A program made the translations under genes and the position numbers. From Planctomycetota bacterium (GTDB lineage Bacteria > Planctomycetota > PLA2 > JAEUHO01): 64,000 bases of DNA. The notes below the pieces were generated by a model. The model was not told where the DNA came from and ran no database searches. It saw nothing but the letters and a program-made list of their open reading frames with translations. Below are positions 5,041 to 59,498 of this stretch, piece by piece. Location: contig JARGNS010000001.1 in assembly GCA_029213105.1 (NCBI GenBank), positions 5,129-69,128 of the forward strand. Direction: 5' to 3'. Position 1 is the stretch's first letter. The number at the start of each line of letters is the position of its first letter.

Positions 5041-5103
5041 GCGAAGAACCTCTCGTGCCGATCATAGCACGAGAGGTCCGTCTCTGCACGTTACTACTGG
5101 TAC

Positions 5104-9488: not shown

Positions 9489-9491
9489 GGA

Positions 9492-11924: not shown

Positions 11925-11952
11925 TTCGTGCTAACTTAGCGATAAGCACGAA
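11925..11952. promoter_or_regulatory. Inverted repeat TTCGTGCT-N12-AGCACGAA in the divergent intergenic region. Contains a TGCTAACTT extended -10-like element.
   Basis: Read directly: tttcgtgctaacttagcgataagcacgaa, about 25 nt upstream of the 11975 start. Confidence 0.35.
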
Positions 11953-12701: not shown

Positions 12702-12748
12702 GCCCCCTCCTCGGTCCGTCACTCCCGGGGAGGGGGCCCTTTCGTTTG
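12702..12748 (+). terminator. Putative intrinsic terminator after the decoration-like gene
   Basis: GCCCCCTCC ... GGAGGGGGC 9-bp stem with 18-nt loop, followed by CCTTTCGTTTG. Confidence 0.4.
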
Positions 12749-12788
12749 CAGAGACGCACTTTTCTGTGTTGCAGGCGTAACACTTCTG

Positions 12789-12818
12789 TTGACGAGTCTG
12801 CAGGTCGTCTGATATACA
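12789..12818 (+). promoter_or_regulatory. Sigma-70-like promoter upstream of the capsid gene: TTGACG, 18-nt spacer, then extended -10 TGATATACA
   Basis: ttgacgagtctgcaggtcgtctgatataca read directly, about 120 nt upstream of the ATG at 12940. Confidence 0.4.
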
Positions 12819-12939
12819 GTCTGCACGCACCCAGTGTTGGAGAGCGGGCAGCCGAAAGGTCCGACGAAGCGTCTTCTGGGCAGGCGTAGACACGAAAACT
12901 ACTCGTCTCACATCTGTCTACCACGAACGGAGACACACC

Positions 12940-14007: not shown

Positions 14008-14019
14008 TTCGGAGGAACC

Positions 14020-14514
14020 ATGCCCACCGTTCGCGCATTCCCTGACGCCGTCACCACGGTCGACACCGCCGCTCAGTACGAGCTTGGCACCATCTGGGAG
14101 ATGGACGCCGCCGAGGCCGAGGAGCTTGACAGCACCGTGGCCGGCCCCCAGCGCTGGGTCTACGTCTTCAATGACGAGGCCTCCACCGCTTGGGCCGCCG
14201 GCAACGTCGTCGCTCTCGATGCTTCCACCGTCAACTACGACGGCATCCTCGCCCCCGTCGACGCACCCGCGGTCCGCCTGCTCGGCGTCGCGCAGCACGC
14301 CATCGCTGCCGGCTCCTACGGCTGGATCCTGGAGCGCGGCTTCGGGGAGGTCCTCGCCGGCACCGGCGGGATCACGGCCAACACCCCGCTCACGGTCAAC
14401 GACACGGACGCCGGCACGGCGCTCGATGGCTCCGCCACCGAGTCCTGCTTCGCCTTCGCGACCGAGGCTGCGACCGCGACCAACACCGCGACCTGCCTGA
14501 TCTCCATCTCCTGA
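14020..14514 (+). CDS. Small virion protein, second DUF2190/decoration-like candidate
   Basis: 164 aa with RBS GGAGGAACC-ATG. Gly/Ala/Thr-rich (GVAQHAIAAGSYGWILERGFGEVLAG). Confidence 0.4.
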   Translation: MPTVRAFPDAVTTVDTAAQYELGTIWEMDAAEAEELDSTVAGPQRWVYVFNDEASTAWAAGNVVALDASTVNYDGILAPVDAPAVRLLGVAQHAIAAGSYGWILERGFGEVLAGTGGITANTPLTVNDTDAGTALDGSATESCFAFATEAATATNTATCLISIS

Positions 14515-14530
14515 CCCCTCGGGTCGCAAC

Positions 14531-14567
14531 CACGCCCCCGTCCGGCCCCGCGCCGAGCGGGGGCGTG
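14531..14567 (+). other. Perfect 10-bp inverted repeat CACGCCCCCG-N17-CGGGGGCGTG (RNA hairpin) whose 3' arm overlaps the recurrent promoter-like motif
   Basis: Read directly. No U-tract follows the stem. Confidence 0.3.
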
Positions 14568-14575
14568 CTACATTG
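14562..14575 (+). promoter_or_regulatory. Recurrent motif GGCGTGCTACATTG (extended -10-like TGCTACATT), copy 1
   Basis: 19 nt upstream of the ATG at 14594. Identical 14-mer also at 16253. Confidence 0.35.
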
Positions 14576-14593
14576 TGAGCAAGTGGAGAGACG

Positions 14594-16252
14594 ATGGATA
14601 CGACGCTCAAGGCCGCGCGCGAGTACCTGCTGAACGACCGGGCGTGGCAGTCCTCCGGCAAGTCGATGGACAAGCGCGTGAACACGTGCCTTGTTCGCGC
14701 GCTTCGAGAGATCGCCGGAGAGGTCCCAGAGGCGCTACTCCCAGCGTCTCGGCACGAGCACATCCGCACCGCCATCTCGGGCACCGCGGAAGCCGTCGGC
14801 GCGTACCTCCTCAAGACGACCGACAACAAGGTCCTCGAGATCGTGACGTCGGCTGGCGACCCATGGTCCGACAGCGCCACGTCGTGGGTCCCCAAGACTG
14901 ACCGGACGTGGGACGGGGTCATGCACCTCGAGATCGTCGACCCGGATGGTCGAATCCGCCGGCGGCAGACGCGCGAGTGGTGGTCTGAGGTCGATGGCTC
15001 AGACACGCGCTACTACGTCAGCATCTCGACGCCGTGGTACGACACCGGGTCGAACGTGATGACCGTCCGAATCCACCAGCCGGCGTTCTTCGTCCCAGCA
15101 GAGACGACGAAGATCCTCTCGCCCGTCCGCATCTTCGACGAGGCGGACCAGCTCCTCGGTCAGATCAGCAGCGGTTCCGCCCGGCGCGACGCCCTGCCCG
15201 ACTACCGCAACCGCGTCGAGGGTCTGCCGACCAACTTCTGGCGCGGCAACTTCGTGCAGATCCCGGCACCGACCGAAGCGCCGCGAGTGGTCTCGATCCT
15301 CGAGAACTCTGACGTCAACGCCACTTCGTACCTCGGGTGGAACGGCCCGGTGCAGGAGGGTAAGTTCCGCGTCTGCTACACCTACGCGTGGGGCCGCCGT
15401 GAGCAGGAGTGGGGTCAGAGCCCCGCCGAGTTCGCCGACCCGATGTGGGAGAGCGCTCCCAGCCCCATCAGCGAGATCTACGACCACGCGAAGCAGGTCG
15501 ACGTGAACTCGAAGGGCGAGGCCGTCGGACGCGCGGCAGTCATCGAGTGCTCGAACCTCGAAGAGATGCTCGACTTCATGGGCGACTCTGCCGGCATCCA
15601 GGTGGACGCGGTGAGCTACCCGCCGTCTTCGGCGCCGCTGCGCTACGGTCGCAGCGGTGTCAAGATCCGCATCTACGTCGCGCGTGACGACCTCTACGCG
15701 AGTCGTGGACCTGCCTCCACCGTCGGCGACCAAGTGCAGGCGACGCACCGCATGAACCGCGCCGAGTCTGACGGGAAGTTCTACCTGCTCGCCGAGATCG
15801 ACCCTCTCGACCGCAACAGCATCCTCGCCGCGATGACCACCCCGTCGTACCGGGTCAGCGCCTTCGTGTGGCAGGGTGCGCTGCCGTCCCCGGACCCAGA
15901 GCGGCAGCTTCGTAAGAACACGGGCTACTACGCGTACCACGTCTGGCCGACGCCAGACAGTGACTACGACCTCGACCTGCAGGTGCTCGAGCAGCCCAAG
16001 GAGCTGGTCAACGACAACGACCAGTTGCCCATCAAGCAGGACGCGTTCGCTGCGTACCTCGAACTCGCCCTCGCGTACCTCAGTCGTCTCGACGGGGTCG
16101 ACGAGCGGTCTGAGCGCAAGCATCGCGCAGAGTACGCGAAGCTCGTCCGTCGGTTCAAGTCGCTGCACGGTGACAACAACGGTGTCGTAGAGAACCGCAT
16201 GTGGGGCGTCGGCAACTCGCGACGCATCTACGGCACTTTCAACGAGGGCTGA
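14594..16252 (+). CDS. Large virion/tail protein (552 aa)
   Basis: Clean ORF with RBS in the late module. No recognisable motif. Confidence 0.45.
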   Translation: MDTTLKAAREYLLNDRAWQSSGKSMDKRVNTCLVRALREIAGEVPEALLPASRHEHIRTAISGTAEAVGAYLLKTTDNKVLEIVTSAGDPWSDSATSWVPKTDRTWDGVMHLEIVDPDGRIRRRQTREWWSEVDGSDTRYYVSISTPWYDTGSNVMTVRIHQPAFFVPAETTKILSPVRIFDEADQLLGQISSGSARRDALPDYRNRVEGLPTNFWRGNFVQIPAPTEAPRVVSILENSDVNATSYLGWNGPVQEGKFRVCYTYAWGRREQEWGQSPAEFADPMWESAPSPISEIYDHAKQVDVNSKGEAVGRAAVIECSNLEEMLDFMGDSAGIQVDAVSYPPSSAPLRYGRSGVKIRIYVARDDLYASRGPASTVGDQVQATHRMNRAESDGKFYLLAEIDPLDRNSILAAMTTPSYRVSAFVWQGALPSPDPERQLRKNTGYYAYHVWPTPDSDYDLDLQVLEQPKELVNDNDQLPIKQDAFAAYLELALAYLSRLDGVDERSERKHRAEYAKLVRRFKSLHGDNNGVVENRMWGVGNSRRIYGTFNEG

Positions 16253-16266
16253 GGCGTGCTACATTG
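16253..16266 (+). promoter_or_regulatory. Recurrent motif GGCGTGCTACATTG, copy 2
   Basis: Starts directly after the stop of the preceding gene, 26 nt upstream of the ATG at 16293. Confidence 0.35.
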
Positions 16267-16292
16267 CCGCCAGCCCATGCTCAGGAGCAACC

Positions 16293-16781
16293 ATGGCAAC
16301 TCCCCCGAAGTGTGAATGTCCGGACCGCGGCGCGTGGTTCGTGCGCAACGATCCCCACCGCGGCCGCTACGAGGCCCAAGTCGTCTGGCGGAACATCCGT
16401 CACGATGGCTCGTGGTCGGTGATGCTGATCACCGACGAAGTGCTGACGCATCGCGTCGACTCGGATCGATTCCACCAGTCCATCCAGCATGACGACTGGC
16501 GCCCGGTCGACTGGGTCTGGAGCGACGAGGCGTGCATGTTCGCGCCGCGCGACCTCGAGTACGACGACGAGAAGCGAGAGTGGAACAAGGTCGACGTGCC
16601 CGAGCCGGGCCCGGAGGACCTGTTCCCCTCGATCGGCAAGCTGCCAGAGGCGAACCCCGGCGAGCACCCCGCTTCGTGGAAGCGGCGGGTCAAGGTGATG
16701 TACCCGTCCCTCAACTCCACGGAGGGCGCCGCGTACCTGAAGGACGCGTGGCCTGAGGTCAAGAAGCGCAAGGCGGGCTGA
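16293..16781 (+). CDS. Hypothetical protein (162 aa) in the virion module
   Basis: RBS CAGGAGCAACC-ATG. Stop overlaps the next start (ATGA). Confidence 0.4.
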   Translation: MATPPKCECPDRGAWFVRNDPHRGRYEAQVVWRNIRHDGSWSVMLITDEVLTHRVDSDRFHQSIQHDDWRPVDWVWSDEACMFAPRDLEYDDEKREWNKVDVPEPGPEDLFPSIGKLPEANPGEHPASWKRRVKVMYPSLNSTEGAAYLKDAWPEVKKRKAG

Positions 16782-18907
16782 TGTCTGGCAAGTCGGATCG
16801 TACTGTAGTCCCCATCCAGGTCACGAACGGCCAGGCGCAGCTGCAGTACGCTCCGGCGCAACTGGCGTATCGAATCCTCAACCTCGAGGCGACCCCCGAG
16901 GGCACGTTGCGCGCTGTCCGCGGGGCTTGCCCCTACGAGCCGGACCGTGGCGGCGACCAGTACGGTGGGTTCGGACTGCCCGGAGGCTACAAGGTCTTCG
17001 GGCGCGTCCCGATGCTGACCGACGTGGTGAAGATCTACGGGGTCTTCCACGCAGGCCTGCTCGGCGGTAAGGCCCCCACGCTGGTCGTGCGGGCCGGCGA
17101 CAGCCTCTACATGCACGCCGGGTGGCGGCGGTCGTGGAAGCTCCTCTACACTGGGCTGACCGACGAGGGTCGTGCCGGGTACCCGGACCTCTTCGCGGTG
17201 GTCAACGGCAACATCATCTGGACCAACGGTCTCGACCCCGCGCTCGTCATCAGCCACGACGGGCAGGTCGTGCCGCTCGGCTTCGACCGAGGTCCCGGCG
17301 CCCCCGAGGTCGATGGCTGCCAGCAGCCCGGCAGCGAGGAGCACTACTACGCGAACTCCGAGGGGTACTCGCACCCCGGACGCGTCGGCTCGGTCGGAGA
17401 CTTCGTCGACAACAACGACGGTGCGCTGCTCGCGAGTCGATACCGCTGGGCGGCTGCGTGGGAGGACGAGCACGGGAACATCTCGCCACTCTCGAACGCG
17501 AGTCGGGAGATCGCGATCTCGGTCCAGCGCGCGAACGCGTGGGTCGAGGAGGCGGGCTCGGTCCAGAAGTACGACCGGACGACGAAGGTCGACGACCTGC
17601 CGCGGCAGTTCACGGCGAAGTTGCCGGGCGGAGCGCCGCCCCACGCGGTGGCTTGGTGGCTCTACCGGACCCCAGACGCGAACCGCAACCCCGACGAGTT
17701 CCGGGTGGTCGAGCGGTTCAGCGGCTCGATGGCGTGCGTCTACGCCGACAACATCCCCGACAGCCGTCTCGGCCCGCCGGCGAAGAACAACGAGCCCGTC
17801 CCGCGGTTCGGGGTCATGACCTCGCACGCAGGGTCTCTGGTCATCGCCAGCGGGGCCCGAGTGCTCCGCAGCGAGGTCGGCTACCCCGGGAGCTTCGACC
17901 GCGACCTGTCAGTCATCCCCGACCCGGACGGCGCTGTCATCACGGGGCTCGCGAGCCACGCAGGCCGCCTCATCGCGTTCACAGAGCGCGCGATGGTCGA
18001 CATCACCGACCCAACGCAGCCCCCCGTGGTCATGGCCCGCGGCATCGGCTGCGTTGCACCTCGGTCGGTCTGCGGCATGCCCGACGGCACGCTGGTGTGG
18101 CTGAGCCGGGACGCCTTCTACGGATGGCACCCAGAGAACGGTCTCCGACGCCTGAGCGACCCCATCCACCGCCTCGTGAAGAACTCGCTGGCCAAGGGGT
18201 CTCTGAGCAACGCAGTCGCCATCATCGAGCCGGAGAGCCGCGAGTACCGGTGCGCAGTCGCGCGGGCGGGCTCGTTCGACAACGAGTTGCTCCTCTGCTT
18301 CGACGGTCTCGGGTGGCGCGAGGTCGAACTCGGCTACAAGATCAGCGACATGTGCGTCACTGATGACTCCCGTTACCGGGCGCTGTTCGCGGGCGGGGTC
18401 GAGCGGCTCTACCCAGACGGGGTCAACACGGTCACGCGGGTGGACGCGTACGACGTCTACGGCATGAACAGCGAGGTCGGGTCGTACACCGACCGCAGCC
18501 GGACCTACTCGTACACCTCTGCGTGGCTGCGCGCCGACGACTCTGCGCTCGCGCACGTGAACGTCCACAACCTCTACGTCGGCATGATCGACGAGATCGA
18601 CGAGAGCGTGAACGTCTACGTCTACCGCGACGGGGCTCGGAAGCCTGACGAGGACAGTCCTCGGAAGCTGAAGGCTGTGGGCACGCTGTCGGAGGACCTC
18701 ATCGGCGACTTCGCCACCGGGTCTGGGTCAGTCCACGCGCGGCGGCTGTTCTGGCGCCAGATCACCGTCGAGCTTGAGAACGCGCACACGTGGTCTTTCA
18801 AGATTGAGTCGGATAAGCCATTCCACCTGGCGTCGTTCGCGCCCGAGATGTCGTACGCGTCGATGGGCGGACCGAACGGTCGAGTCCCGTTCGGGGAGGA
18901 TGAGTAA
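16781..18907 (+). CDS. Large virion/tail protein (708 aa)
   Basis: Translationally coupled ORF in the late module. Gly/Pro/Asp-rich beta-type composition. Confidence 0.45.
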   Translation: MSGKSDRTVVPIQVTNGQAQLQYAPAQLAYRILNLEATPEGTLRAVRGACPYEPDRGGDQYGGFGLPGGYKVFGRVPMLTDVVKIYGVFHAGLLGGKAPTLVVRAGDSLYMHAGWRRSWKLLYTGLTDEGRAGYPDLFAVVNGNIIWTNGLDPALVISHDGQVVPLGFDRGPGAPEVDGCQQPGSEEHYYANSEGYSHPGRVGSVGDFVDNNDGALLASRYRWAAAWEDEHGNISPLSNASREIAISVQRANAWVEEAGSVQKYDRTTKVDDLPRQFTAKLPGGAPPHAVAWWLYRTPDANRNPDEFRVVERFSGSMACVYADNIPDSRLGPPAKNNEPVPRFGVMTSHAGSLVIASGARVLRSEVGYPGSFDRDLSVIPDPDGAVITGLASHAGRLIAFTERAMVDITDPTQPPVVMARGIGCVAPRSVCGMPDGTLVWLSRDAFYGWHPENGLRRLSDPIHRLVKNSLAKGSLSNAVAIIEPESREYRCAVARAGSFDNELLLCFDGLGWREVELGYKISDMCVTDDSRYRALFAGGVERLYPDGVNTVTRVDAYDVYGMNSEVGSYTDRSRTYSYTSAWLRADDSALAHVNVHNLYVGMIDEIDESVNVYVYRDGARKPDEDSPRKLKAVGTLSEDLIGDFATGSGSVHARRLFWRQITVELENAHTWSFKIESDKPFHLASFAPEMSYASMGGPNGRVPFGEDE

Positions 18908-21036
18908 TGTCCGGTGACTACGTCCACCCGAAGCACAAGTTCGTCGAGAAGGAGCCGCTCGAGACCACTGAGGTCAACGAGGCGATCCAGCCGATCGGTG
19001 AGACCCTGAACGGTCAGCTTGGTCCGCACAACCTGCGAGCCCCGCTGGACCCCGCACTGGCTGCGGCTGCCGACACGTTCTCGCGGACGCTGCACCGGTT
19101 CGTCGAGGTCAACAGCGCCATCGGACCGACGCAGTCTCCGCAGCCGGACGCGGTCGGGTCGTTCAGCCTTGGGCAGGACAACTCTTGGCAGCTACTCACC
19201 GGGCCCGTCGCGGAAGATGACCTGAAGGTAGAGATCGCCACCGGAAAGTCGGACCTCATCCTGACCGCACAGGTCGCCCACTGCTATCAGGGCAAGTTCG
19301 ACGGGGTCAACGAGGCGCACGTCATCAGCATCCCTGAGATCACGTACAACGGTGACGAGCCCTACCCGATCGACTTCATCATCCAGATCGTTAGCACCGA
19401 CTACGATGTGCGCGTGAACTACCCTACGAAGGCGGAATCCGGAGGAACTGCCGCAGGGCAGCGGCGCAAGTTCGCACAGCGTCTGGCCGCAGGCGGGCAG
19501 TCCACAGGCGGGGGCTCGGTCGGAGTGGCCGGGTGGGTGACCGCGACTGGTTGGGGTGCCCGCGCCGAGGGTGAGAAGGTGGTCTTCTCAAACACGGTGC
19601 CCGGACCAGCGGCTTCGATCAGCGGGATCAAGGACTTCCTCGGAATCACCGAGCCAGCAGTCATCCGCACCCGCGGAAAGGTCGGCGGCTCCGTGAACGG
19701 CTTCGGTGACCTCAAGTCGTACGTCACCTCTGGGGGGAACGCGTCGGTACTGTACTACCCAGCGCAGGTGCAGTACGCGTTCAGGGTCGACGGCACCGTC
19801 ATCGAGACGACCGAGACCGGGCGCTTCGACAACGAGCAGTTGTCGTGGCAGCCGCTCCGGGTCATCAGCCCGCGGTCCGCCAGCGGCCCGCTGCCGGTCG
19901 CCGGCGTCACGCAGGTCGGGATGACGGGGCCGATGGTTGGACGTACCAGTGATCGCCCCGACGCGATCAACGTCCCGATGCATTCGCACCGGATCAAGGC
20001 GGTAGTGCCTGTCGATCCCGGCACCCACTTCGTGGAGGTCGTGGCCCGGCGGGTCCCGTGCGGCCCGAACCGCTCGTTCCGCACCGGCATCCCCAACGTG
20101 GGCACGAGCCCGGACGTCGAGTCGCTGCAGCCCGAGAACAACGACCTCGTCGTCTACCAGCGTCAGCTGGTCGTAACCGAGAGCCCGCTGGAGCCTACGA
20201 CCGCGGCTCCCTTCGCTTCTCACGTCACGGTCGAGGCGTTCGATGACGAGGACACGGTCTCGAACGAGTCCCTCGTCGTGCGTCGTCTCGAGCCGCTCGC
20301 AGGCGCAGCGAACGCAGTCAAGTCGCACCAGGTTGCGCGCGGCGCCATCAACAACGACCACCTCGCCGACTACAGCCCCACGCTCGCGGTCGGGTACCGT
20401 GGCTTCGTCAGCGACATCGTCGTCGACTCGGTCGCCCACCCGTTTGCATGGCCGTCGTCCGACAAGACTGGACTGACGCTGCTCGGAGGCGACTACCAGC
20501 TCTGGGGCACGTCAGCTGCGTCGACGCTCTCGTGGCAGACGGTCGTGGTGACCCCGCTGTCGCGCGTACTGCAGGGGTCGATCGGCGACACGATCGAGTG
20601 CGTCATCTCGGTCGAGGGGAACGTGGCGCTGAAGAAGCTCGCGCCGCGCAACGCCACGCAGACCGAGATGCACCTCTCCGCGCTGGTGCTGGGCATCGGC
20701 CTCGAGGTCGATGTCGGCACGGGCTACAAGTGGCGCCTGTGGCTCCCCTCGGTCGGGTGGGCGAACAGCAACAACTACTTCGCGCGCCAGCCCGCCAAGG
20801 GTACGAAGTCGTCGCTCACGCTGGAGCACCTCTCGAGTCGGTCGGATCTCGGCGGGGGCGATTTCGATGACATCCCGCTGTCAGCCACATTCGTGCTCAA
20901 CGGCGCGCAAGCCCTCGGGGTCAAGGTGCGCTCGGTCGGCATCTTCGCGTGCGCGACCCACATGACCACGACGGCCGAGGTCGCCGATGCTACGATCGAG
21001 CGCGCGTCCATCAACGTGGTCGCGACCAAGTCCTGA
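18907..21036 (+). CDS. Large virion/tail protein (709 aa)
   Basis: Start overlaps the upstream stop (TAATG). Ser/Thr/Gly/Val-rich beta-type composition. Confidence 0.45.
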   Translation: MSGDYVHPKHKFVEKEPLETTEVNEAIQPIGETLNGQLGPHNLRAPLDPALAAAADTFSRTLHRFVEVNSAIGPTQSPQPDAVGSFSLGQDNSWQLLTGPVAEDDLKVEIATGKSDLILTAQVAHCYQGKFDGVNEAHVISIPEITYNGDEPYPIDFIIQIVSTDYDVRVNYPTKAESGGTAAGQRRKFAQRLAAGGQSTGGGSVGVAGWVTATGWGARAEGEKVVFSNTVPGPAASISGIKDFLGITEPAVIRTRGKVGGSVNGFGDLKSYVTSGGNASVLYYPAQVQYAFRVDGTVIETTETGRFDNEQLSWQPLRVISPRSASGPLPVAGVTQVGMTGPMVGRTSDRPDAINVPMHSHRIKAVVPVDPGTHFVEVVARRVPCGPNRSFRTGIPNVGTSPDVESLQPENNDLVVYQRQLVVTESPLEPTTAAPFASHVTVEAFDDEDTVSNESLVVRRLEPLAGAANAVKSHQVARGAINNDHLADYSPTLAVGYRGFVSDIVVDSVAHPFAWPSSDKTGLTLLGGDYQLWGTSAASTLSWQTVVVTPLSRVLQGSIGDTIECVISVEGNVALKKLAPRNATQTEMHLSALVLGIGLEVDVGTGYKWRLWLPSVGWANSNNYFARQPAKGTKSSLTLEHLSSRSDLGGGDFDDIPLSATFVLNGAQALGVKVRSVGIFACATHMTTTAEVADATIERASINVVATKS

Positions 21037-21042
21037 GGTCCT

Positions 21043-21873
21043 ATGCCTGTCACTCTCGATCCGAGCTACTTCGCCGACGGCGTGACGTTCGACCCTGAGC
21101 ACCTGAACAACTCCCTCTACTCGCTGACGCGCGGCGCCGGTCTGTACTCGGAGTTGAATGGCGGCATTGAGGGCGGGAACTTCGACCCGTCGTTCGAGCT
21201 GCGACAGGAGCACGTCCAACCCGAGCAGTTCGTGAAGGCGAAGTCGGATGGTGCCACGTCTACGCTCGACAACCTGAGCGACGTGAGCGGTCGTTCCGTT
21301 TTCCAGGATGAGGTAGAGATCCCACGTCGGCAGGGGCTGCCCGGGTGCGGCGTCCGAGTCTACGTCCCGTTCGAGGCGACTTCGATTCGGTGGAACATCG
21401 GGTGGTTCTGGTACACGATGAAGTGGTTCGGTCTCGACCTGAGCGACGTGGACGCGCTCACCAGCGAGGCTCAGAAGATCGTGACGCACCTGTTTGTCGA
21501 CGGGGAGGAGATCCCCGAGATGCGCCGCGAGTACCCGCTCACGTGGTTCACGAAGGCTGCGGCTGACTACGCGTCTGCGACAGGCGTGAATGACAACGAG
21601 ATGCCTTGGTCCACTGAGGCTGAGCAGGCGAACTACTTCAACCTGTCGTATCTGCAGACTGAGGCGAGCGTGACGAACCCGGACCGCCGGGTTGTACCGG
21701 GCTACCACGAGGCCTACCTCGGCTTCTACGTCGCACCGCTGGAGGAGGCCTACTTCTTCCGCGAGACGATGAAGCCCTACGACCGTGGCGCGACCCCGGC
21801 GGAGAAGGTCCTGCAGATGTACCAGCGGCTCTCGGTCGGATGCCGCAACACCACGGTCGTCGCGAACCGCTGA
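21043..21873 (+). CDS. Virion protein (276 aa)
   Basis: ORF with RBS, in the late module. Confidence 0.4.
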   Translation: MPVTLDPSYFADGVTFDPEHLNNSLYSLTRGAGLYSELNGGIEGGNFDPSFELRQEHVQPEQFVKAKSDGATSTLDNLSDVSGRSVFQDEVEIPRRQGLPGCGVRVYVPFEATSIRWNIGWFWYTMKWFGLDLSDVDALTSEAQKIVTHLFVDGEEIPEMRREYPLTWFTKAAADYASATGVNDNEMPWSTEAEQANYFNLSYLQTEASVTNPDRRVVPGYHEAYLGFYVAPLEEAYFFRETMKPYDRGATPAEKVLQMYQRLSVGCRNTTVVANR

Positions 21874-21888
21874 ACGTGCTACCATAGC
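21874..21888 (+). promoter_or_regulatory. Recurrent motif variant AACGTGCTACCATAG (TGCTACCAT), copy 3
   Basis: Immediately after the stop of the upstream gene, 15 nt upstream of the ATG at 21903. Confidence 0.3.
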
Positions 21889-21902
21889 GTCTGGAGAAGT
21901 CA

Positions 21903-22586
21903 ATGCCCGCAGGTCTCATCGCTGGTCTCGGAGCCGCCGTCGCAGGCGGCACTGGTCTCGCCAGTTCCCTCATGCAGGGGAAGGCGGCACGTCGTGACGC
22001 GGAGGCGCGCAAGCGCTCTATGGACCGGTACGCCAAGGCGCTGAGTTCCGAGGCGAGCAAGATCCAGGGCGGAACGTCGCAGGCGCAGCAGCGCACGCTC
22101 GCGACGACTGGGGCGCTTCAGCGCTCCGCTGAGTCGCAGCACCTGCTTGACCAGTCGAAGCGCGGCGGCCGAGACCCAAGCACCGACGATCTCCGGGCGG
22201 TCGCTCAGGCGCAGCAGGCGGGCGCTGCGGCCCAGCAGCAGAACCTCGACGCGATGAGCCAGCAGCAGGCAGTTCAGCGTGACGAGATCCGACGCAGTCT
22301 CCAGCAGCAGGGTCTGCAGGCCGCTGCGCAGGCTCAGGCCATCGACCCGCGCGCGGCGGCAGCCGCCGCACGTGCGCCGGGTATCGCACAGGTTGGCGGG
22401 GCGCTGGGCGGCGCGGCGCTGCAGGCGGCCATGCCGACGCTGCAGCAGCAGGTCGGAGGCGCCGCGGCATACCGCGAGGGTCTCCGCGAGGCGTCGGATA
22501 TCCAGAAGGCGGTCGACCAGGGCGTCAAGAAGTCCAAGAACAAGAAGATCTACGGGCAGGATGTCCGAGGTACGGGGAGCGTCTGA
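21903..22586 (+). CDS. Internal virion protein-like, Gln/Ala-rich with N-terminal hydrophobic segment
   Basis: 227 aa: MPAGLIAGLGAAVAGGTGLASSLM then QQ/AA-rich low complexity. Comparable in position and style to T7 gp13/gp14. Confidence 0.4.
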   Translation: MPAGLIAGLGAAVAGGTGLASSLMQGKAARRDAEARKRSMDRYAKALSSEASKIQGGTSQAQQRTLATTGALQRSAESQHLLDQSKRGGRDPSTDDLRAVAQAQQAGAAAQQQNLDAMSQQQAVQRDEIRRSLQQQGLQAAAQAQAIDPRAAAAAARAPGIAQVGGALGGAALQAAMPTLQQQVGGAAAYREGLREASDIQKAVDQGVKKSKNKKIYGQDVRGTGSV

Positions 22587-25177
22587 TGGCCACGACCACT
22601 GAGATGCTCACGCAGGTCAAGAACCTTCGCGCCGAAGTCCACGCAAAGGTGCGGAGTGGCGAGATCGACGCAGAGAACGCGCAGAAGCGTCTGGACCGCC
22701 TCTCGAAGATCGAGAAGGAATGGCGCACGCGTATGCGCGAGTTCGACGAGGAGCAGCAGAAGGCGAAGGCCGCAGGCCGCATCGACTACGTCGGTGAGAT
22801 CAACCGACGCGCCGGCGCCTACCAGAAGGACATGATGGCGATGTGGAAGTCCGGCATCACGTCCCCGAAGGAGGCGAAGGAGCTGGCGGACGAGGCTCGG
22901 GCCGAGATGCTCGAACTCAACGTGCGGCACCCCGGCGTGGTCAAGTCGGCCGAGAGCACCATCGCGTCGAAGATCGACGCCTCTCCCGCGCGATTCGCGG
23001 GCAAGCTGCTCGGGGTCAACCCATGGGAGGCAACTGACGAGAAGCACGCCTATGACTACCACGGAGAGTACGCAGACATCCCCGCGATGGCACTCATGCG
23101 CGCAGGTGCGCTCGTTCCGAATGTCGAAGGCGCCGGGTCTCAGCAGGCGACGATGGAGGAGTGGCTCGCGCTAACTCCGGATGAGCTGGCGGGTCTACAG
23201 AATGCCGAGCCGGAGGAGGTCGACGACGCCATCGACGACATCATCGACGATCGGATGCGCAAGATCGGCGACAGCGGTATCGCGCAGATCTCGCAAGCGC
23301 TCGGCCTCGAGGCGCACGCCGACGCGATCGATGCGCTACGTGAGCAGGTCCTGCCGGGCGGGATGCGGGCCGCGGCTGCGCGGGCGCTGAAGCGCGCCGA
23401 CCTCGGCAAGATCGTGGAGATCGCGGACAGTGGCGAGATGACGTCGGACAAGGCCCGTGAGATGAGCCTCCTCTACGGTCGGCAGGGCCGCCGTGACGCG
23501 CTCGCGACCATGGAGGCAGAAGGCCTCGACCACAAGGCGTACGCAGCCGCAGAGGGCTGGGTCGACCCGGAGGTCAGCGGCGACCCGATGGCAGAGAAGA
23601 TCGCGTTCGCTCAGGAGATCGAGGATCTCGACGCGTGGATGCTCAGCGGGGGCTACTCCGAGGACGAGGTCAAGAACCTCAAGGAGGGCAACCTCGCCGG
23701 CGTGCGGTCGAGCGGCAACCCGTTCGTCGACAGTGCGATGCGGCGTGTCGCTGCGGCCAGTCAGATGGCGCAGAGCGACAACTTCCGCGAGTGGGCGGAG
23801 GACCGCGGCCTCAACCTCGCAGAGGGGCGCGTCCCGTCGCCGGCACAGATCTCTCGGTACATGCGTCAGTCTCGACGCGACAGTCGGCGCCCGCTGCGTG
23901 GTACCGGACGAATGATCGACCTGGAAGTCGTGGACAAGGACCTCGGCGTCGAGACCGAGCAGGGTCTGATGTACTTCCAGAACGAGGCAGGAGAGTTCGT
24001 TGGTGCCGAGCAGATTGCCGAGATGGCGGCCGCTGAACTGAGCAACTTCGAGGAGAACCCGGTCGCGGAGATCGACCTCGAGAACCCGGAGGCGCGCGCC
24101 GCGTTCGCCTCGACGATCAGCGACCCGCAGATGCTCAAGGAGCTTCAGGTCATCGAGCGCGTGCTTCAGCGGGACCCGAGCAAGGCCGCAGGGATGCGCG
24201 CCATGGTCGACCGCACCAACGGCCGGGTCGCACTCGTGGGCCCGCAGCGTCGGGTTGCGGCGACGACGCAGATTGACTCCGCGCACCTCGAACGACTCGC
24301 TCAGATGACGACCAACCCTGAGATGGCAGACGTGGTCGGGTCGGTCGACAAGCTCAACGAGTCGCGCACCAACAACGGTCTGACGAGCGAGGTCTTCGCC
24401 TCGATGGAGAAGGGCTCGACCATCGACCCTGTGACTCTGTTCGTGCCGAAGGGTGCGCTCGTCGCGGAGCGCGAGCCGGTCAAGACGAAGCGGGTCGAGG
24501 TTGCCCGGACCCTCGCGGGGGACCGTGACGACATCTTCCGAGGCATCTACATCGACGAGGACGGGGTCAAGCGCGAGGAACTCATCGAGTACGACGACCT
24601 GCGCGCGAAGCCAGCAGAGGTCGACCTCGCGGAGTCTGGTCTCACGACTCAGCAGCAGCGGCGTGCCTCTCGGCGAGACGCACGGCAGCTTCGCCGTGCG
24701 CAGGCGCCGGCGCGCAAGGCGACGCTGCAGGGTCAGGAGTCCGACCCGGTCCACACGCCTTACCAGACGGTCTTGGACTACGAGACCCCGTCCCAGCGGG
24801 CACTCACGACCGGGCAGGGGGTCGGCTCCGGAGGGGGTTACCGGCAGCGCTTGAACCTCGCGGACCCCGACGCGAAGATGCCCGGATTCAAGGCGGCGCC
24901 TGAGTTCTCTCGCCTCGGAGAGTCCCGTCTCGCACTCGAGTCTCCTCTCGCCCTTGAGTCCCGCTTGGCGCTCGAGTCGCCCACGTACCCGACGTCCGAG
25001 CAGGACATGAGCGAGCCAGCACCAGTTGGTGGCGGCCGCAGCAAGTACAATCCGGCACCGTACCTGCGCGCTGGGATGTCGCTGGACCCGGAGCGCGTGG
25101 AGCGCGAGGCTCAGGAGGCGGCCGCCGACTCGCTGGCTGAGCGGCTTCGCAAGAACAAGGCCGCCAAGTCTCAGTGA
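22586..25177 (+). CDS. Internal virion/core protein-like (863 aa, alpha-helical, acidic), T7 gp15-like position
   Basis: Long charged helical protein immediately before the giant gene. C-terminal LALES tandem repeats. Confidence 0.45.
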   Translation: MATTTEMLTQVKNLRAEVHAKVRSGEIDAENAQKRLDRLSKIEKEWRTRMREFDEEQQKAKAAGRIDYVGEINRRAGAYQKDMMAMWKSGITSPKEAKELADEARAEMLELNVRHPGVVKSAESTIASKIDASPARFAGKLLGVNPWEATDEKHAYDYHGEYADIPAMALMRAGALVPNVEGAGSQQATMEEWLALTPDELAGLQNAEPEEVDDAIDDIIDDRMRKIGDSGIAQISQALGLEAHADAIDALREQVLPGGMRAAAARALKRADLGKIVEIADSGEMTSDKAREMSLLYGRQGRRDALATMEAEGLDHKAYAAAEGWVDPEVSGDPMAEKIAFAQEIEDLDAWMLSGGYSEDEVKNLKEGNLAGVRSSGNPFVDSAMRRVAAASQMAQSDNFREWAEDRGLNLAEGRVPSPAQISRYMRQSRRDSRRPLRGTGRMIDLEVVDKDLGVETEQGLMYFQNEAGEFVGAEQIAEMAAAELSNFEENPVAEIDLENPEARAAFASTISDPQMLKELQVIERVLQRDPSKAAGMRAMVDRTNGRVALVGPQRRVAATTQIDSAHLERLAQMTTNPEMADVVGSVDKLNESRTNNGLTSEVFASMEKGSTIDPVTLFVPKGALVAEREPVKTKRVEVARTLAGDRDDIFRGIYIDEDGVKREELIEYDDLRAKPAEVDLAESGLTTQQQRRASRRDARQLRRAQAPARKATLQGQESDPVHTPYQTVLDYETPSQRALTTGQGVGSGGGYRQRLNLADPDAKMPGFKAAPEFSRLGESRLALESPLALESRLALESPTYPTSEQDMSEPAPVGGGRSKYNPAPYLRAGMSLDPERVEREAQEAAADSLAERLRKNKAAKSQ
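24915..24980 (+). repeat. Imperfect 15-18-nt tandem repeats encoding (E)SRLAL/ESPLAL x4
   Basis: gagtcccgtctcgcactc gagtctcctctcgccctt gagtcccgcttggcgctc gagtcgccc read directly. Confidence 0.55.
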
Positions 25178-25192
25178 GTCCAACGTACGTTT

Positions 25193-25206
25193 GACGTGTT
25201 ACACTC
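25193..25206 (+). promoter_or_regulatory. Recurrent motif variant GACGTGTTACACTC, copy 4, preceded by TTGACG
   Basis: About 20-25 nt upstream of the giant-gene start. Confidence 0.3.
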
Positions 25207-25224
25207 ACCAGCAACCGCGGGTGA

Positions 25225-34200: not shown

Positions 34201-36885
34201 GCCGGCGTGTCGCCCGACAAGGCGATGCCGGCCTTCCTCATGATGGGCGTCTCCGGCTACACGCACGGACTGTACCAGGACATGCGCGTGCTGGGGATGG
34301 GTCTGAACGCAGGCGACGCGAAGGCCTACATGCGCTACGTCGCCGGCAACGCCGCGGTCATGACTACGGCGGAGGTCGACCGCGCCAAGGCAGTCGCGAA
34401 GAACTACGGCCTCAACGCCCGGTTCACGGTCTCCCCCGACAGTGTCGGCGACTTCTACATCCCCGAGACTGCTCGCGATGAGTTGGCTGCTCGGATGCAG
34501 CACGGGATGCGTCAGGTGGGCGCGGAGGGTCAGGACAAGCCGCTCATGCAGTTGATGGGCGCCGTCTACGGCTACCAGTTGCAGAACCTGATCTACGGCA
34601 CGGTCGGGTCGCGACAGTCGTTCAAGCTGATGTCGACTCAGGACCTCGGCATCCAGCTGGGCATCTACGCTGGTGGCGCCGCTGGCGCGGCCGCGGCGAC
34701 CCGCGTCGGGGCTCTGACCGTGCTCAGCGCAGGCCTGCCGGGCTCGGCTGGTCTGGTGTCCATGGAGCGCGCCGCAGACATCGCCGACCTCGGCAAGCGG
34801 GTCTACGACCACGCACTGAACAAGGGCGGCCCCATCGTCGAGGCTGCCGCATTCAAGGCTTCGTTCCGAGCGTGGGCCGCAAAGAACGCAGACGAGGCTA
34901 CCGCGGCCGCGACTGAGTTCCTGTCGCGCGCGAAGCACCGGGTCGAGGTCGCCCCGATCCTCGAGAACCAGGACCACATGCTCGCCATCGGCGGCCGGGT
35001 CTATAACGCTCAGAACCTGCGCCGGGTCTTCACCCGTGCGGGCCTGTACAGCAACTCCTTCAAGGAGATGAAGTCCCTCTTCCGCGAGAACTTCTCGAAC
35101 ACTGTGGACCGCGACAGGCTGAGCGAGACGGTCGGTCTGAGCGGCGCGAACCGCCAGTTCTTGGACAGCGCCGACGAGACCGCTCAGGGCTTCTTCGCCT
35201 CCGGCGACGCGAAGCGGATGGGGCGCCGGACGGCAAGCTCTGTCTTCGAGCACGGGGTCGAGTCTGCCGATGCGTGGGCAGATCTCGAGCGGACCGGCGC
35301 CGCCGTGACGTTGATGGAGATGGGCTACGACCCCGAGGCTGCGTCTCGGGTCGTGGTCGAGGCCATCTACGACTACCGTGGCTCGATGACCGACGGAGAC
35401 CGTCACTGGCTTCGGCGCATCCTGATGCCCTTCTGGGCCTTCCGCAAGAACGCGAACACGCAGGCAGCGAATCTCGTTGCGACCCCGCGCGGCGCGTACA
35501 TGGCGACGGCGCTCATGCGGGCGACCCGCTTCGGCGCGGAGGCGGCCACCCACGCGGTCTACGAGACCATCCTCGGCCCGTACGGGGTCAACGTCACCGC
35601 GATGGAGCCCGCGACGCTCGACGCGTACTACGACACCCGCCTCTTCCTCGAGTTCGGTGAGCCGGAGCCGACCCCGGAGATCCTCGAGGCGTACCGCGCG
35701 TCGCTGCCAGATGAGGACAAGAGCATCTCGGACGAGGCGCTGCTCGAGTACGACTTCGATGGCTGGACCATCAAGGAGGGCTACGGCGGCTACAGCAAGG
35801 TGCCTGAGCACGCCAAGCGCGCTCTGCGGGGCCTGCTGGCATCCAAGTACAGCATCGACGGGGGTGGCCGCTACAAGGGTCTTCGCTCCACCATGGCGTC
35901 CTCTGAGGCCATGGCTGAGTTCGCGAAGCTCGGCGCCGAGATGTCGGTTCGCGACGAGGCGAGCCGGTCGGCCCTGCCCGGCTGGGTGCGGCTGCGTCCG
36001 ACCGTCCAGGTCCCGGTGCCGGTCTTGACCGAGGACCTCGAGGTCTCGCTCCGACGCGGCATGGGCGACAGCCTGTACTTCATGATGCCGGACAACTTCA
36101 TGATGTCCGCCATCGACCACGCATCTGCGACGTTCGCCACCATGTACCTCGGCGGCCAGATCGCGCTCGAAGGCGTGCGCGAGGTCGCAGGTGACCCTGA
36201 GGCGAACGTCACGAAGGCTGACGGCTACCGGATGCTCAACGCATTCGCCCCGATCGTCGACGTGCGCGACTACGGCAGCCCGTTCAGCAAGCTGCTCTTC
36301 TCCGCGGTCGAGTACGGCACGATGGAGCGGGCGCCGCGGGTTCGGCTGGACCCGCGCATCGCGCGTCTCATCGAGGGCAGCTCCGGCTTCGAACTGGAGC
36401 ACGAGGGCGAGCGGGTCAACAGCCCCGGCACCGCGTTCGCGTACAAGACCTTCGCCGGCGCCGCGAGCGCCGCTGGGTCGATCTTCGCAGGGGTCGAGGT
36501 CGACGAGTCCGCTCGACGCGCCTTCGCTCGCCCAGTCAAGGTCGAGGTCATCGACGGCAAGCGCACGATCGTGCCCTACGAGGGCGTCAGCTACGACGGC
36601 ACCGCCTCCGAGTTCACCGACGACAGCCGCACGGTCGGGTACACCCCGTACCTGAGCGGGATGGGCGCGCTCTACTTCGAGTACACGCCGCTCGGTCAGG
36701 TGAACAAGTTCATGCTGAAGCACCGCGACACGACGCTGGAGCAGGCCATGTCGACCGACCCCGAGCTTCGCAACGCGGTGCTCGAGCTTCTCGGTGAGTC
36801 CGCGCGGGTCTCCGGCATCGGCGTCCTGCCGGCTGATCGGGCGCGCGCAGCCAAGATGGGCAAGCCGTACATCAACCTGAAGTGA
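25225..36885 (+). CDS. Giant 3886-aa multidomain virion protein with T4-lysozyme-like (GH24) domain, HEXXH zincin-like motif and possible ART-like region. T7 gp16-like position; 'polyvalent' ejection-protein candidate.
   Basis: Single uninterrupted 11.66-kb frame with GC3-rich codon usage; GTG start at 25225 or ATG at 25231. Around aa 420-540: IQELLHKEEGFRGTVYDD..TIGYGHAIS..EDAVALFFEDVDEH, the T4-lysozyme family signature. Around aa 2470: GLHEMAHVMRRNL...EELFAEGFERYL (HEXXH). Around aa 1900-2000: LFVKWFEGSKVVDDSGRAAPMWLRGTTP. Long helical linkers. Confidence 0.7.
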   Translation: MSMPYLKTLSKRAGEPLRPSGDAEVEPVVTVAEGSDEEFFTPDYGEAEEVLPSAGATAEQPKDPTKKALFHGVFDVLDRSLKDGDARKALYTKVAADTGHEFVKGVRRLSEDEGDGGGLIEDLTLAAAAFPVTRPLAALAKSAFDPVRTNDISDYMIRGESGDEATTTRLRDAKVSDEVKAELEKSGRQALAVRGARDIVTDSVMDHLRAAYVSEADSPEAGKARFDAQMERWRALKEKSTGEKVTTREMEHEIAFMVDQRLGGAVQGEGPLMSIARSSVKDTGNLVEATLVRNMAAAQPLLSGDDETDRIDPNRILESEEGLETVLPETTAERAERLIEEVGLLAPQVIEDQIRQGNLDYTLVPNFSDMTTKAVAETGAAPTTKNSVAVTAGDAQALATPMIQELLHKEEGFRGTVYDDLNPQTNNGPITAYGDALGTPTIGYGHAISADERDRFEKYLSGGEVMSKEDAVALFFEDVDEHQTWLPKIKKPVTPEMITALTSLAFNAGPNHPDVGKVINAINEGDYQKASEALRDGVATSKGKFLQGLKDRRGREADLFLSGGLPTEPVEGEVTEVEAVDIDSDIIDLGSGDVEINKFEEMTGTQMTEVEGGFFAAMKDLDDYGLKPATGSQSWMRATKALRVIQENNPETYDKLKGFGDLPSGQGFYALERELQRDFQTEMASRRRGGEEIDPVKERAQLRARTAEVIASARTEGLWATPSLVSRNYLMGIDEVPEELGLIEAAVTPLIEIVGAVDDEVIYRQESAAMVTLNALDAAPILGQSYNLGVLENYVAPAAMEFYEDPSVAAAASLGLKTAALGSSLSVVGQVALRASGEMTEMHAAGVRGVTERSNLVEFSMDMSSRFGEWAVTSDAGEAVLTAAVKRDLVPFIPDGLTAVDERQRVLAATDVVRAGYKLAGVPIGFAAAVAHPDLLLPLSSTIGAVPDAIKAYRGLSKVEKAGEALGRTKLSEINAVGLERMAATLNTLTSLSEAAHVDEVGEVNAEALGQLLRAMDNSDASLARGDDLDAALREVSPHPMKTIDRASEEFVGTLAQNGNYGAKAAIDPQLSSTVFLVAEDVIAAAKASGDPEKVKLAEEAAAAMDRLGLGQALTLTPKTADLRVKDAVGADKAFNTRDRVLVLRRTLQLLDDVEDGRGMRERVFQGRLLAPIESIGNTKVTDIEGMPRGMTTRAAVDVLGPVSDETLEAGLKTSRMGDAAKAEVREKLKTLREWHSDFTKAIDDNTILDKDVNKALRQRFEDLGIASMTGRLFEGPSTGARYRQVVKSIRGDVSAVSGASPMRAKVAQGLAGVLTYNYSRGRAMQEFARAMVDEDALKLAGLSVDAFLDPNGGAHRLRRFAAAVQVGGRETVMNFLGGLPGGSKVSGDLSRSAVSQNSARAAATQMLADGQDEWSTATAIQNAVARKLRARHAALVEGGDEARALEVWEQAQEVAKPEWQETLVQWMHRSADEYNRARDAGETPNLDEFELPVGIDPSILRTGDAEARPTAAVKAWVDDVYDPAYGKMPPKEATDPELTPTAKQGKRTTRPALSAEDKKGVTAILDNMVRYMAGVTSDMSKRQVEAVVGSWLDDNIKNVRRVGGETQYRKQFDALRGEFETMVEDRVRELVGDGPVTDAARRTAQLDALDSILPVMTEAEAIILTGSYKDFIQDAILTARFGDEFEARRLFQGAGSAATSRTAQAVIQAAHDGREVTFQQQRGATFQVLQDIYGIAERAVAAIKNKRKKSDVHTLLTLERLEGLGLDADLDDAMDIEGFISLVAKMYLDEPDRDVWVKSVRDLVALNVSRRHPSEYNRTPGVGGRTTRPSGWGARQPDTYPARSARLDVKRLLAQTSAGRQWWRAARPTLGGVTQAADVRRSEMFSNLGTRSPLFVKWFEGSKVVDDSGRAAPMWLRGTTPTGEAAVTDGPLGRGVYGDDALTERRIFSNGEDDPAGAAYMRLENPLEVPAMTPGDGWLKYDSLDVGYELQSAVWERLMRDKHYRAASIVLDGKKVKIHVDHPEIMKALSAEAREAGHDGIIVKSSLSYHENGSPVVYFAFDKNAVKIADGNAGFDPSDARILFQAAENPYAEANRDILSGLAAEAARRREVEGLPVSKIPARKLPRDPEALPADTHRWPGEERDALDATVDAARLRADVSGLPEAAEITGTQAATKVERLIGKSRDDERQYFYDLIEWLSEKAERDAGVNIGDFRRMAPEGMTDDEVKKVYKTFMDEKVIVPSKKKGRRDVSPEEVAKAQTFIDALIYDMSEEGIIESLDVAGRVSRLDLDSLTRPETIKDAAVRDVVEKLKKYAPQELDDMVEARAPTFTAEVKKLEKELRRVEQFQKDAVKSLKDLKDKRKRTLRQGTINRYEQEKLRLRDALDRLKARRDADAEAHANLGSVAAEARARKATSDGAGGVGGPPPGAAGDAPLEGSNSNAKGMAYFLSDGSALLYAFKNADASTGLHEMAHVMRRNLRQTHLETTLDWANDFLEAEGLSPVRLNAQGNFEGEVRSVINAEELFAEGFERYLREGVAPTSALEKVFSVIRGLMAKIYSAITDEAINVEISDEMYNVFDEIFGAQRKLTLDQLPEVQRYLDFQRASEGGEMRRGGRIVEQSPVEETAVDHMRQTFRSLDDYRARFGMPYGDPKTDLTQGPGAETHRSKPLGPVSRRALSLGEVSERMGKDPSQWSAKERALAFADKAAIGVASGVQAVAFGLFFGGDAERAYRALPVAARSHLRGPMRELEEMLADLSMLTVDSSRLVGDQRERAVSNIVKFFRGASVQMQTGAQRGRRTKSAFVDSEQHLIRLFTRVFDAIDDESLKALDVDAEAVLAKIAGADRVPGHSSSGALSGLWQGYRVSRPEVSSRTSEAFAGGLVISDDTRARLQVVEGSTESVPELFDDTLGNIFKALTGQNLGKGGLVPEEAQKVAALMVFHAGGTQIRKGGEVFTAADLRAGAYGLDAIYNGSVVTKNGVTVEIPGLLKAGVSPDKAMPAFLMMGVSGYTHGLYQDMRVLGMGLNAGDAKAYMRYVAGNAAVMTTAEVDRAKAVAKNYGLNARFTVSPDSVGDFYIPETARDELAARMQHGMRQVGAEGQDKPLMQLMGAVYGYQLQNLIYGTVGSRQSFKLMSTQDLGIQLGIYAGGAAGAAAATRVGALTVLSAGLPGSAGLVSMERAADIADLGKRVYDHALNKGGPIVEAAAFKASFRAWAAKNADEATAAATEFLSRAKHRVEVAPILENQDHMLAIGGRVYNAQNLRRVFTRAGLYSNSFKEMKSLFRENFSNTVDRDRLSETVGLSGANRQFLDSADETAQGFFASGDAKRMGRRTASSVFEHGVESADAWADLERTGAAVTLMEMGYDPEAASRVVVEAIYDYRGSMTDGDRHWLRRILMPFWAFRKNANTQAANLVATPRGAYMATALMRATRFGAEAATHAVYETILGPYGVNVTAMEPATLDAYYDTRLFLEFGEPEPTPEILEAYRASLPDEDKSISDEALLEYDFDGWTIKEGYGGYSKVPEHAKRALRGLLASKYSIDGGGRYKGLRSTMASSEAMAEFAKLGAEMSVRDEASRSALPGWVRLRPTVQVPVPVLTEDLEVSLRRGMGDSLYFMMPDNFMMSAIDHASATFATMYLGGQIALEGVREVAGDPEANVTKADGYRMLNAFAPIVDVRDYGSPFSKLLFSAVEYGTMERAPRVRLDPRIARLIEGSSGFELEHEGERVNSPGTAFAYKTFAGAASAAGSIFAGVEVDESARRAFARPVKVEVIDGKRTIVPYEGVSYDGTASEFTDDSRTVGYTPYLSGMGALYFEYTPLGQVNKFMLKHRDTTLEQAMSTDPELRNAVLELLGESARVSGIGVLPADRARAAKMGKPYINLK

Positions 36886-36910
36886 TAGACTACCCGCACA
36901 GGAGACCCAC

Positions 36911-49634: not shown

Positions 49635-49730
49635 GGGTCGCTCCAGGTATGTAGTAGTTGTTGTTGTAGTGCCCCGAAAGGCTCAAGGAGCTTAGCACGG
49701 CCCAAGGCGGTGGTCGTGTATCTTTTTCGT

Positions 49731-59432: not shown

Positions 59433-59498
59433 ACTTCTTGCCTCCGGGTTGATGGTAGGGTGGCAGCACACACCTGTCAAACATGCTAAGATTTCGGC

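Follow-up and report, generated by a model that had tools for sequence, protein, structure and literature searches.

A recurrent extended −10-like motif as a putative set of −35-independent promoters across the genome of an uncultured phage

Late promoters of phage T4 carry TATAAATA at −10 and no −35 element and are read with the phage sigma factor gp55, and the −10-only promoters of Actinobacteria follow the consensus TANNNT. In the extended −10 class, the element T−17 R−16 T−15 G−14 lies one base upstream of the −10 hexamer and is read by sigma domain 3; together with the −10 element it bypasses the sigma-4/−35 contact, as in the ‘−16 region’ of B. subtilis, galP1-type promoters of E. coli and the sigAP-TGTG variants of M. 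tuberculosis (PMC6212719). In the Thermus phage P23-45 (and in phiYS40), middle and late promoters of this class stay active when gp39 displaces sigma-4 (PMC3950348), and leaderless transcripts have been described in mycobacteria (PMC4633059). Here we examine a recurrent motif, CRTGYTANNNT, in a stretch of 64,000 nucleotides (nt) of contig JARGNS010000001.1 (positions 5,129 to 69,128; hereafter the window), deposited under Planctomycetota bacterium and corresponding to a phage genome of 64-69% GC. The motif most probably represents a set of −35-independent extended −10 promoters (YGTGnTAnnnT) read by the host RNA polymerase with its primary sigma-70-family sigma factor.

The initial annotation of this DNA had drawn attention to an identical 14-mer, GGCGTGCTACATTG, lying 19 and 26 nt upstream of two gene starts. 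This 14-mer was found exactly twice, at 14562-14575 and 16253-16266, both on the + strand (none expected from 100 shuffles); counted from its last base, the A of the respective ATG is 19 and 27 nt away (18 and 26 nt lie between), and one of the two distances is thus corrected by a base. The close variants listed with it were also recovered: AACGTGCTACCATAG at 21873-21887, GACGTGTTACACTC at 25193-25206 and TTCGTGCTAACTTAG at 11925-11939. We then counted a generalised core, CRTGYTANNNT, and obtained 8 matches on both strands of the window versus 1.49 expected. All eight are intergenic, all are directed at the next gene and all lie 6-54 nt upstream of its start codon (Table 1). Intergenic DNA amounts to only 4.6 kb (~7% of the window), where dinucleotide shuffles predict 0.17 copies and none of 1000 shuffles reached eight; a frequency similar to that of coding regions, which would have argued against the motif, was therefore not observed. 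Three copies, 5061-5071(−), 49689-49699(−) and 59482-59492(+), lie beyond the range first annotated or on the other strand. The bare pattern TGNTANNNT gave 17 matches, nine of them intergenic and two more within the last 50 nt of a gene just before the next start. The core was derived from the same window in which it was counted, and independent support comes only from relatives and from an unbiased word count over the 27 noncoding stretches upstream of genes, in which TGCTA (k=5), GTGCTA (k=6) and CGTGCTA (k=7) were the top words.

The layout of the copies closely follows the published element. T−15 G−14 stands exactly one base upstream of the hexamer in all eight copies and at the orthologous sites, and T−12, A−11 and T−7 are present in all eight. 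As in sigma-70 extended −10 promoters, TG precedes TAnnnT by one base, −16 is a purine (G, or A in the 59482 copy), −17 is a pyrimidine and no usable −35 exists; unlike the published promoters, −17 is C instead of the consensus T in all eight window copies (and mostly C in the phage motif as a whole). When the best −35 (TTGACA, 15-19 nt spacing) was sought at the eight sites, only 1-3 of 6 positions matched, as at random window positions, while a control promoter in the same test, 59480(−), scored 6 of 6. A strict sigma-70 consensus scan of 11000-26000 returned no −35/−10 promoter, which fits the −35-less reading. Finally, both divergent regions where fresh + strand initiation is needed (11868-11974 and 59433-59498) have the motif as their best promoter-like element.

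Hence the first proposal of an extended −10 without a −35 was borne out by position, orientation, pattern of conservation and the absent −35. The alternative suggestion that the CGTG part marks a phage-specific promoter or regulator site is not needed, since −17/−16 (Y, G) correspond to the 5′ half of the published element (PMC6212719) and, with TG, account for CGTG. An alphaproteobacterial GCTANAWC-type −10 was rejected by inspection, the copies misfitting positions 6-8 of that consensus. As to the polymerase, Pfam and PHROGs searches (each open reading frame, ORF, scanned against at least one library) gave no RNA polymerase or sigma-factor match among window ORFs, in a scan that covered the window, about 9.4 kb of the 73.4-kb contig lying outside it. 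PDB sequence searches with the proteins of 722 and 3884 amino acids (aa) likewise gave no RNA polymerase or sigma factor: the former matched nothing and the latter GH24 lysozymes only.

We next compared related phage contigs (designated by L numbers). From these, orthologous-site comparisons alone were taken as evidence; intergenic enrichment in relatives was not used, as the crude gene caller based on third-codon-position GC (GC3) was unreliable at lower GC and called 26% of the DNA noncoding. In relatives of 38-75% protein identity, the motif is kept at five orthologous intergenic sites while the flanking bases diverge. Before the ~560-aa gene (14594), the window has GGCGTGCTACATT and L005-L010 have GCGTGATACACT, GGCGTGCTACGCT or GGCGTGCTACATT. 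Before the ~161-aa gene (16293), the window again has GGCGTGCTACATT and relatives follow GCGTGATA[CT]A[CG]T, with GCGTGATACACT, GCGTGATATACT or GCGTGATACAGT in L005-L009. Before the ~230-aa gene (21903), AACGTGCTACCAT of the window corresponds to CCGTGCTAATCT in L005-L008 and CCGTGCTATTCT in L009. At the AAA_24 site (49634, −), the window carries CCGTGCTAAGCT, relatives of ~70% aa identity TGTGTTACAGT, those of 67% CTGTGTTACAAG/A and those of 38-47% TnTGTTAnnnT. Before the 134-aa gene (5040, −), TCGTGCTATGAT is matched by GCGTGCTATGCT in L009 despite a different upstream neighbour gene. At the 11927 site relatives keep TAnnnT and not TG, and strain L053 (95% identical) has the 59482 site unchanged.

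To read conservation at non-anchor positions, 47 non-identical sites were tabulated, anchored on TGnTA. Position −17 was Y in 46 of 47 (C in 22, T in 24), −16 was G in 39 and −7 was T in 41, counts that overstate the sample size, as orthologous sites share ancestry. A bias for C was seen at −10, positions −13, −9 and −8 are variable, and bases further out do not rise above background. The aligned sequences clearly separate fixed from free positions, and the pattern in relatives reads Y−17 G−16 T−15 G−14 n T−12 A−11 n n n T−7, close relatives having the exact TGTGnTAnnnT form of the published element. The exceptions at T−7 are TACAAG/TACAAA in L030-L033 and two sites in L052.

Table 1. Copies of the motif, weaker candidates and associated elements in the window.
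Feature	Sequence	Position	Strand	Context
Motif copy	CGTGCTACATT	14564..14574	+	within exact 14-mer 14562-14575; 19 nt before ATG 14594 (552-aa gene)
−10 hexamer of the 14564 copy	TACATT	14569-14574	+	
Terminator-like GC-rich hairpin		14531..14567	+	3′ of capsid and cement-like genes; the motif's CGTG closes the 3′ arm
Motif copy	CGTGCTACATT	16255..16265	+	within exact 14-mer 16253-16266; 27 nt before ATG 16293
Motif copy	CGTGCTACCAT	21875..21885	+	begins 2 nt past a stop codon; 17 nt before ATG 21903
Motif copy	CGTGTTACACT	25195..25205	+	25 nt before ATG 25231 of the 3884-aa gene
Motif copy	CGTGCTAACTT	11927..11937	+	divergent region 11868-11974; 37 nt before ATG 11975
Motif copy	CGTGCTATGAT	5061..5071	−	20 nt before ATG 5040 of an unannotated 134-aa gene, portal/terminase block
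Motif copy	CGTGCTAAGCT	49689..49699	−	54 nt before start 49634 of an AAA_24-like replication or recombination gene
Motif copy	CATGCTAAGAT	59482..59492	+	hexamer ends 6 nt before ATG 59499 (162-aa gene)
Weaker second candidate	TGGTAGGGT, GA before it	59453..59461	+	37 nt before ATG 59499
Weaker candidate	GTGATAGACT	36882..36891	+	overlaps the giant gene's stop codon; 19 nt before ATG 36911
Capsid-gene promoter (predicted)	TTGACG-N15-TGA-TATACA	12789..12818	+	has a −35
−35/−10 promoter (predicted)	TTGACA-N17-TACCAT	59452..59480	−	only canonical intergenic −35/−10 promoter; heads the long leftward block

The steps of the proposed mechanism follow the established mechanism of the extended −10 class. 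Sigma domain 2 would capture T−12, A−11 and T−7, and sigma domain 3 would contact T−15 G−14 and the −17/−16 bases, replacing the missing sigma-4/−35 contact. Transcription would start ~7 nt past the hexamer and yield 5′ leaders of roughly 10-48 nt with a GGAG-type ribosome-binding site. At 59499, where no Shine-Dalgarno sequence precedes the ATG (the same start is used in PGAP record MDF1699600.1), the mRNA of the 162-aa gene would begin at the A of the ATG and thus have no leader; a 6-nt distance from hexamer to ATG without Shine-Dalgarno is explained by a promoter and not by an RNA signal. Sequence, location, orientation, statistics, conservation and the missing −35 are observed; the polymerase that binds, the transcription start sites and any temporal role are inferred.

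Such promoters would occupy both divergent control regions, the position after the terminator-like hairpin of the capsid unit, positions directly after stop codons of the structural block and a place inside the replication block, and would start or boost transcription of individual gene groups genome-wide. Use of the motif spans the genome, with about eight sites, and is not confined to late genes as first thought: it also precedes a gene of the replication module, the 134-aa gene of the portal/terminase block on the − strand and the leaderless gene. The related idea that the motif punctuates a late operon holds in part. The hairpin at 14531-14567 (inverted repeat I13; RNA fold −36 kcal/mol, z −5.0), kept in L005-L010 with one wobble change and one compensatory change, together with the 14564 copy, the only one of the eight to follow a terminator-like hairpin, looks like a terminator and then a restart. 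The 16255 and 21875 copies start 1-3 nt past a stop codon (immediately past that of the 552-aa gene for 16255) with no terminator, and would therefore be internal promoters added to read-through transcription. The structural block would then not be one simple late operon. For the giant gene, the in-frame ATG 25231 is a likelier start than the GTG 25225 initially given, and the TTGACG noted in front of its motif copy was ruled out as a −35 by spacing: located at 25191-25196, it overlaps the motif and leaves 3 nt to the −10 hexamer.

Two other motif-like sequences were discarded. The weaker copy reported at 12774 (GGCGTAACACTT; GGCGTAACACTTCTG at 12774..12788(+)), one of the six copies listed initially, has no TG, is not conserved and forms one arm of a small hairpin (12766-12783) just upstream of the capsid −35. 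The sequence TGCTACGAT at 20988..20996(+), in the 3′ end of the 709-aa gene, is probably due to chance; the orthologous position is empty in L005-L009.

Besides the shared ancestry of the tabulated sites, the derivation of the core from the window itself and the part of the contig beyond the sigma-factor scan, several observations weigh against promoters read by the host primary sigma factor. Promoter function is deduced from sequence, for a phage whose host is uncultured. One group of relatives has another base in place of T−7 at the AAA_24 site (TACAAG or TACAAA), and −7 of the capsid promoter is A or G, never T, in all relatives; from these departures, the host polymerase may read a somewhat different −10. 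Also, half of the eight copies sit within hairpins of unusual stability, a feature not called for by a simple promoter model.

A promoter could instead be read by a specialised factor, that is a phage or alternative sigma factor or a host polymerase reprogrammed by a small phage protein, for which gp55 at T4 late promoters is the model. The −10-only element indeed has more conserved positions than many host promoters (Y−17, G−16 and the C bias at −10), and the existence of two promoters with a −35, at 59480(−) and before the capsid gene, gives two classes that could be switched; many small ORFs are without annotation, and 9.4 kb of contig lie outside the window. The extended −10 class of P23-45 middle and late promoters offers a precedent (PMC3950348). 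We nevertheless consider this explanation unlikely: window ORFs gave no match to sigma-70 region 2 or 4, RNA polymerase, gp55 or AsiA, and no phage-encoded polymerase or sigma factor of the T7, N4 or T4-late kind was found among them; the motif precedes several modules and not one temporal class; the capsid gene, a typical late gene, has a −35 and misfits a simple switch from −35 to extended −10; and the conserved positions are exactly those that primary sigma factors read. Less likely still is that the motif is no promoter, acting as the site of a phage regulator (operator or ‘stoperator’-like) or as an RNA signal (processing, terminator or anti-Shine-Dalgarno hairpin). The stability of the hairpins around four copies (z −3.2 to −5.5), TCGTGC...GCACGA dyads common to two copies (5043-5082 and 11925-11952) and the compensatory changes in the 14531-14567 hairpin, whose 3′ arm includes CGTG, would speak for it. 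However, the motif is asymmetric, always directed at a gene and only 11 nt long, and the free variation of −13, −9 and −8 suits sigma recognition and not an operator or base-paired RNA. The dyads differ in spacing (8 versus 14 nt between the CGTGC/GCACG cores) and are lacking at the other copies, two copies have no upstream transcript on their strand and hence no RNA to process, and inverted repeats are a common feature of this GC-rich genome (96 pairs). A hairpin equivalent to that of the 5061 site was not seen by inspection at the orthologous site of L009, where the motif is present. As for a compositional artefact, by which AT-richer intergenic DNA would hold more TA-bearing words, intergenic GC is slightly lower (62.6% versus about 66%) and plain TANNNT occurs there 48 times against 37 expected, which is no enrichment; given the composition-matched shuffles above, the orientation of all copies towards the downstream gene and the persistence of orthologous sites in diverged relatives, we regard chance as scarcely credible.

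Hairpins around the putative promoters deserve a description of their own. The 11927 copy overlaps the inverted repeat TTCGTGCT-N12-AGCACGAA. At 5036-5090(−) (−32.3 kcal/mol, z −5.5) and 25193-25235(+) (−20.6 kcal/mol, z −3.8), the fold places the −10 in a loop or a 5′ arm, with the Shine-Dalgarno sequence and ATG in the opposite 3′ arm: the 5061 copy has its −10 within the loop of a perfect 14-bp stem, and the 25195 copy makes up the 5′ arm of the hairpin 25196-25234, in which ribosome-binding site and ATG belong to the 3′ arm. In one attractive but tentative model built on these folds, the 5′ arm would be missing from an mRNA started at the promoter, leaving the ribosome-binding site exposed, and read-through RNA would fold and mask the site or terminate. 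A broader proposal is that a widespread marine phage lineage, whose hosts may be Planctomycetota, expresses the greater part of its genome from −35-independent YGTGnTAnnnT promoters, some of them hairpin-built so that only promoter-started mRNAs expose the ribosome-binding site, a few −35/−10 promoters being a separate class; taken as a whole, we hold it to be doubtful. If true, the lineage may use a sigma-4-disabling switch like that of P23-45, and the motif would give an initial insight into the promoter grammar used by an uncultured host.

Similarity with P23-45 lies in −35-less extended −10 promoters for many phage genes, accompanied by few −35/−10 promoters. In contrast to P23-45, the −35 and extended −10 promoters are not split by temporal class: the capsid gene has a −35, and the motif occurs in the replication block and both divergent regions. 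No gp39 or gp76 homologue and no AsiA-like match was found in Pfam/PHROGs scans of the window, such small proteins diverging past the reach of sequence searches, and a P23-45-like promoter switch would here be speculation by analogy. With Actinobacteria, the phage shares the TAnnnT −10, a weak or absent −35 and one ATG at a predicted +1. Unlike an actinophage, it has no hallmark such as WhiB in the window (no WhiB, sigma factor or integrase was found there) and is binned with a Planctomycetota metagenome-assembled genome (MAG); the actinobacterial context evoked in the initial annotation thus gives way to this binning, which is the sole hint of a host. T4 late promoters resemble the motif as −10-only phage promoters recurring before structural genes and differ from it in consensus, in the gp55-, gp33- and gp45-type factors, which were not detected here, and in that the motif also precedes non-late genes. 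The promoter class is textbook knowledge and the phage lineage is new and uncultured, so the value lies in annotation and comparison and not in a new concept: a promoter map usable for a lineage common in marine metagenomes, and, in TRTGn-type extended −10 elements, GGAG ribosome-binding sites and one leaderless start, a clue to the kind of host polymerase.

The capsid gene is preceded by a promoter of the second class. In aligned relatives its TTGAC is kept in most (not in L010) and TG and TA are invariant. Upstream of this gene, a GC-rich hairpin followed by CTTTCGTTT at 12699-12748(+) is terminator-like (−29.6 kcal/mol). A stem-loop at 12825-12887(+), ACGCACCCAG...GCGGGCAGCC-GAAA-GGTCCGAC...CTGGGCAGGCGT, occupies the 5′ end of the predicted capsid mRNA leader and is nearly invariant in 12 relatives with diverged promoter-proximal DNA (consensus fold of 19 pairs, 5 of them compensatory). 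Rfam returned no known RNA family in the window, this stem-loop included, and the structure may serve to stabilise the mRNA or to regulate it from its 5′ end. The other promoter with a −35 lies in the 66-nt divergent control region 59433-59498 and serves, on the minus strand, a 74-aa membrane-like gene (59208-59432) heading the replication block. The + strand motif at 59482 directly adjoins the −35 of this promoter, and the overlapping promoters of this region could be mutually exclusive. The 162-aa protein encoded on the other side has a weak HTH_23 match (E 0.016) and a weak small-terminase PHROG match (E 1.6e-4).

The window consists of a leftward block (400-11867) with portal (7809-9488) and large terminase (9976-11625), a rightward structural block (11975-37354) with the capsid gene (12940-14007), a cement-like gene, tail-like genes and the 3884-aa protein, a leftward replication block (37549-59432) with DUF927 primase-helicase, PolA, RNA ligase, ThyX and an intein-bearing SNF2 helicase, and a small rightward gene (59499-59987). 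A tRNA-Leu(CAA) at 37359-37445(−) stands where the structural and replication blocks converge. The proteins are identical to those of a 73,432-bp GenBank MAG contig labelled Planctomycetota bacterium (locus tags P1V36_), and the gene content of this MAG-deposited contig is wholly phage-like. A near-identity DNA search and tblastn with the portal and capsid proteins gave no match among 50,697 deposited phage genomes. Relatives are frequent in marine metagenomes and viromes (Tara, JGI, ENA) and in IMG/VR, where they have gene order in common, 71-75% aa identity for the capsid protein (MCP) and 38-76% for the AAA_24-like protein. Queried with proteins of 863, 319 and 162 aa and with the N-terminal part of the giant protein, IMG/VR yielded no relatives, and in a protein-database search the giant-protein N-terminus matched nothing and the 863-aa protein only itself. 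Scans of genome collections with one protein and with a 50-mer taken from the end of the window gave no match.

Within the 3884-aa ORF (25231-36885(+)), a GH24 lysozyme domain spans residues ~425-565 and a PHROG of unknown function ~2461-2588, and no further domain was recognised; a virion RNA polymerase of the N4 type was rejected for it, matches being to lysozymes only, and it is probably an ejected internal virion protein. The SNF2-type helicase (54341-57199(−)) is split by an intein carrying an HNH endonuclease domain. What looks like a gap between the terminase and the gene that follows is filled by an unlisted coiled-coil-like ORF of 47 aa (9836-9979(−)), with ATGA and TGATG start/stop overlaps; a motif-like CGTGATACCAT at 10025-10035(−), in the 3′ end of the terminase gene, lies ~45 nt upstream of the ATG of this ORF. 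Two contigs from separate samples, L053 (~95% nucleotide identity to the window phage) and L054 (identical 162-aa gene), both stop exactly 157 nt past the 162-aa gene (tails at 10490-10646 and 6649-6805 respectively, corresponding to about 59988-60140 of the window); the tail does not align to the window, and either a region that varies between strains or the end of the genome may lie here. Finally, ACAACAACAAC (CAA/ACA) repeats were observed just 5′ of GGAG ribosome-binding sites in replication-block leaders (48568-48638 and 49635-49700, −); they are conserved in relatives (L013-L036) and form the second most enriched class of words upstream of genes.

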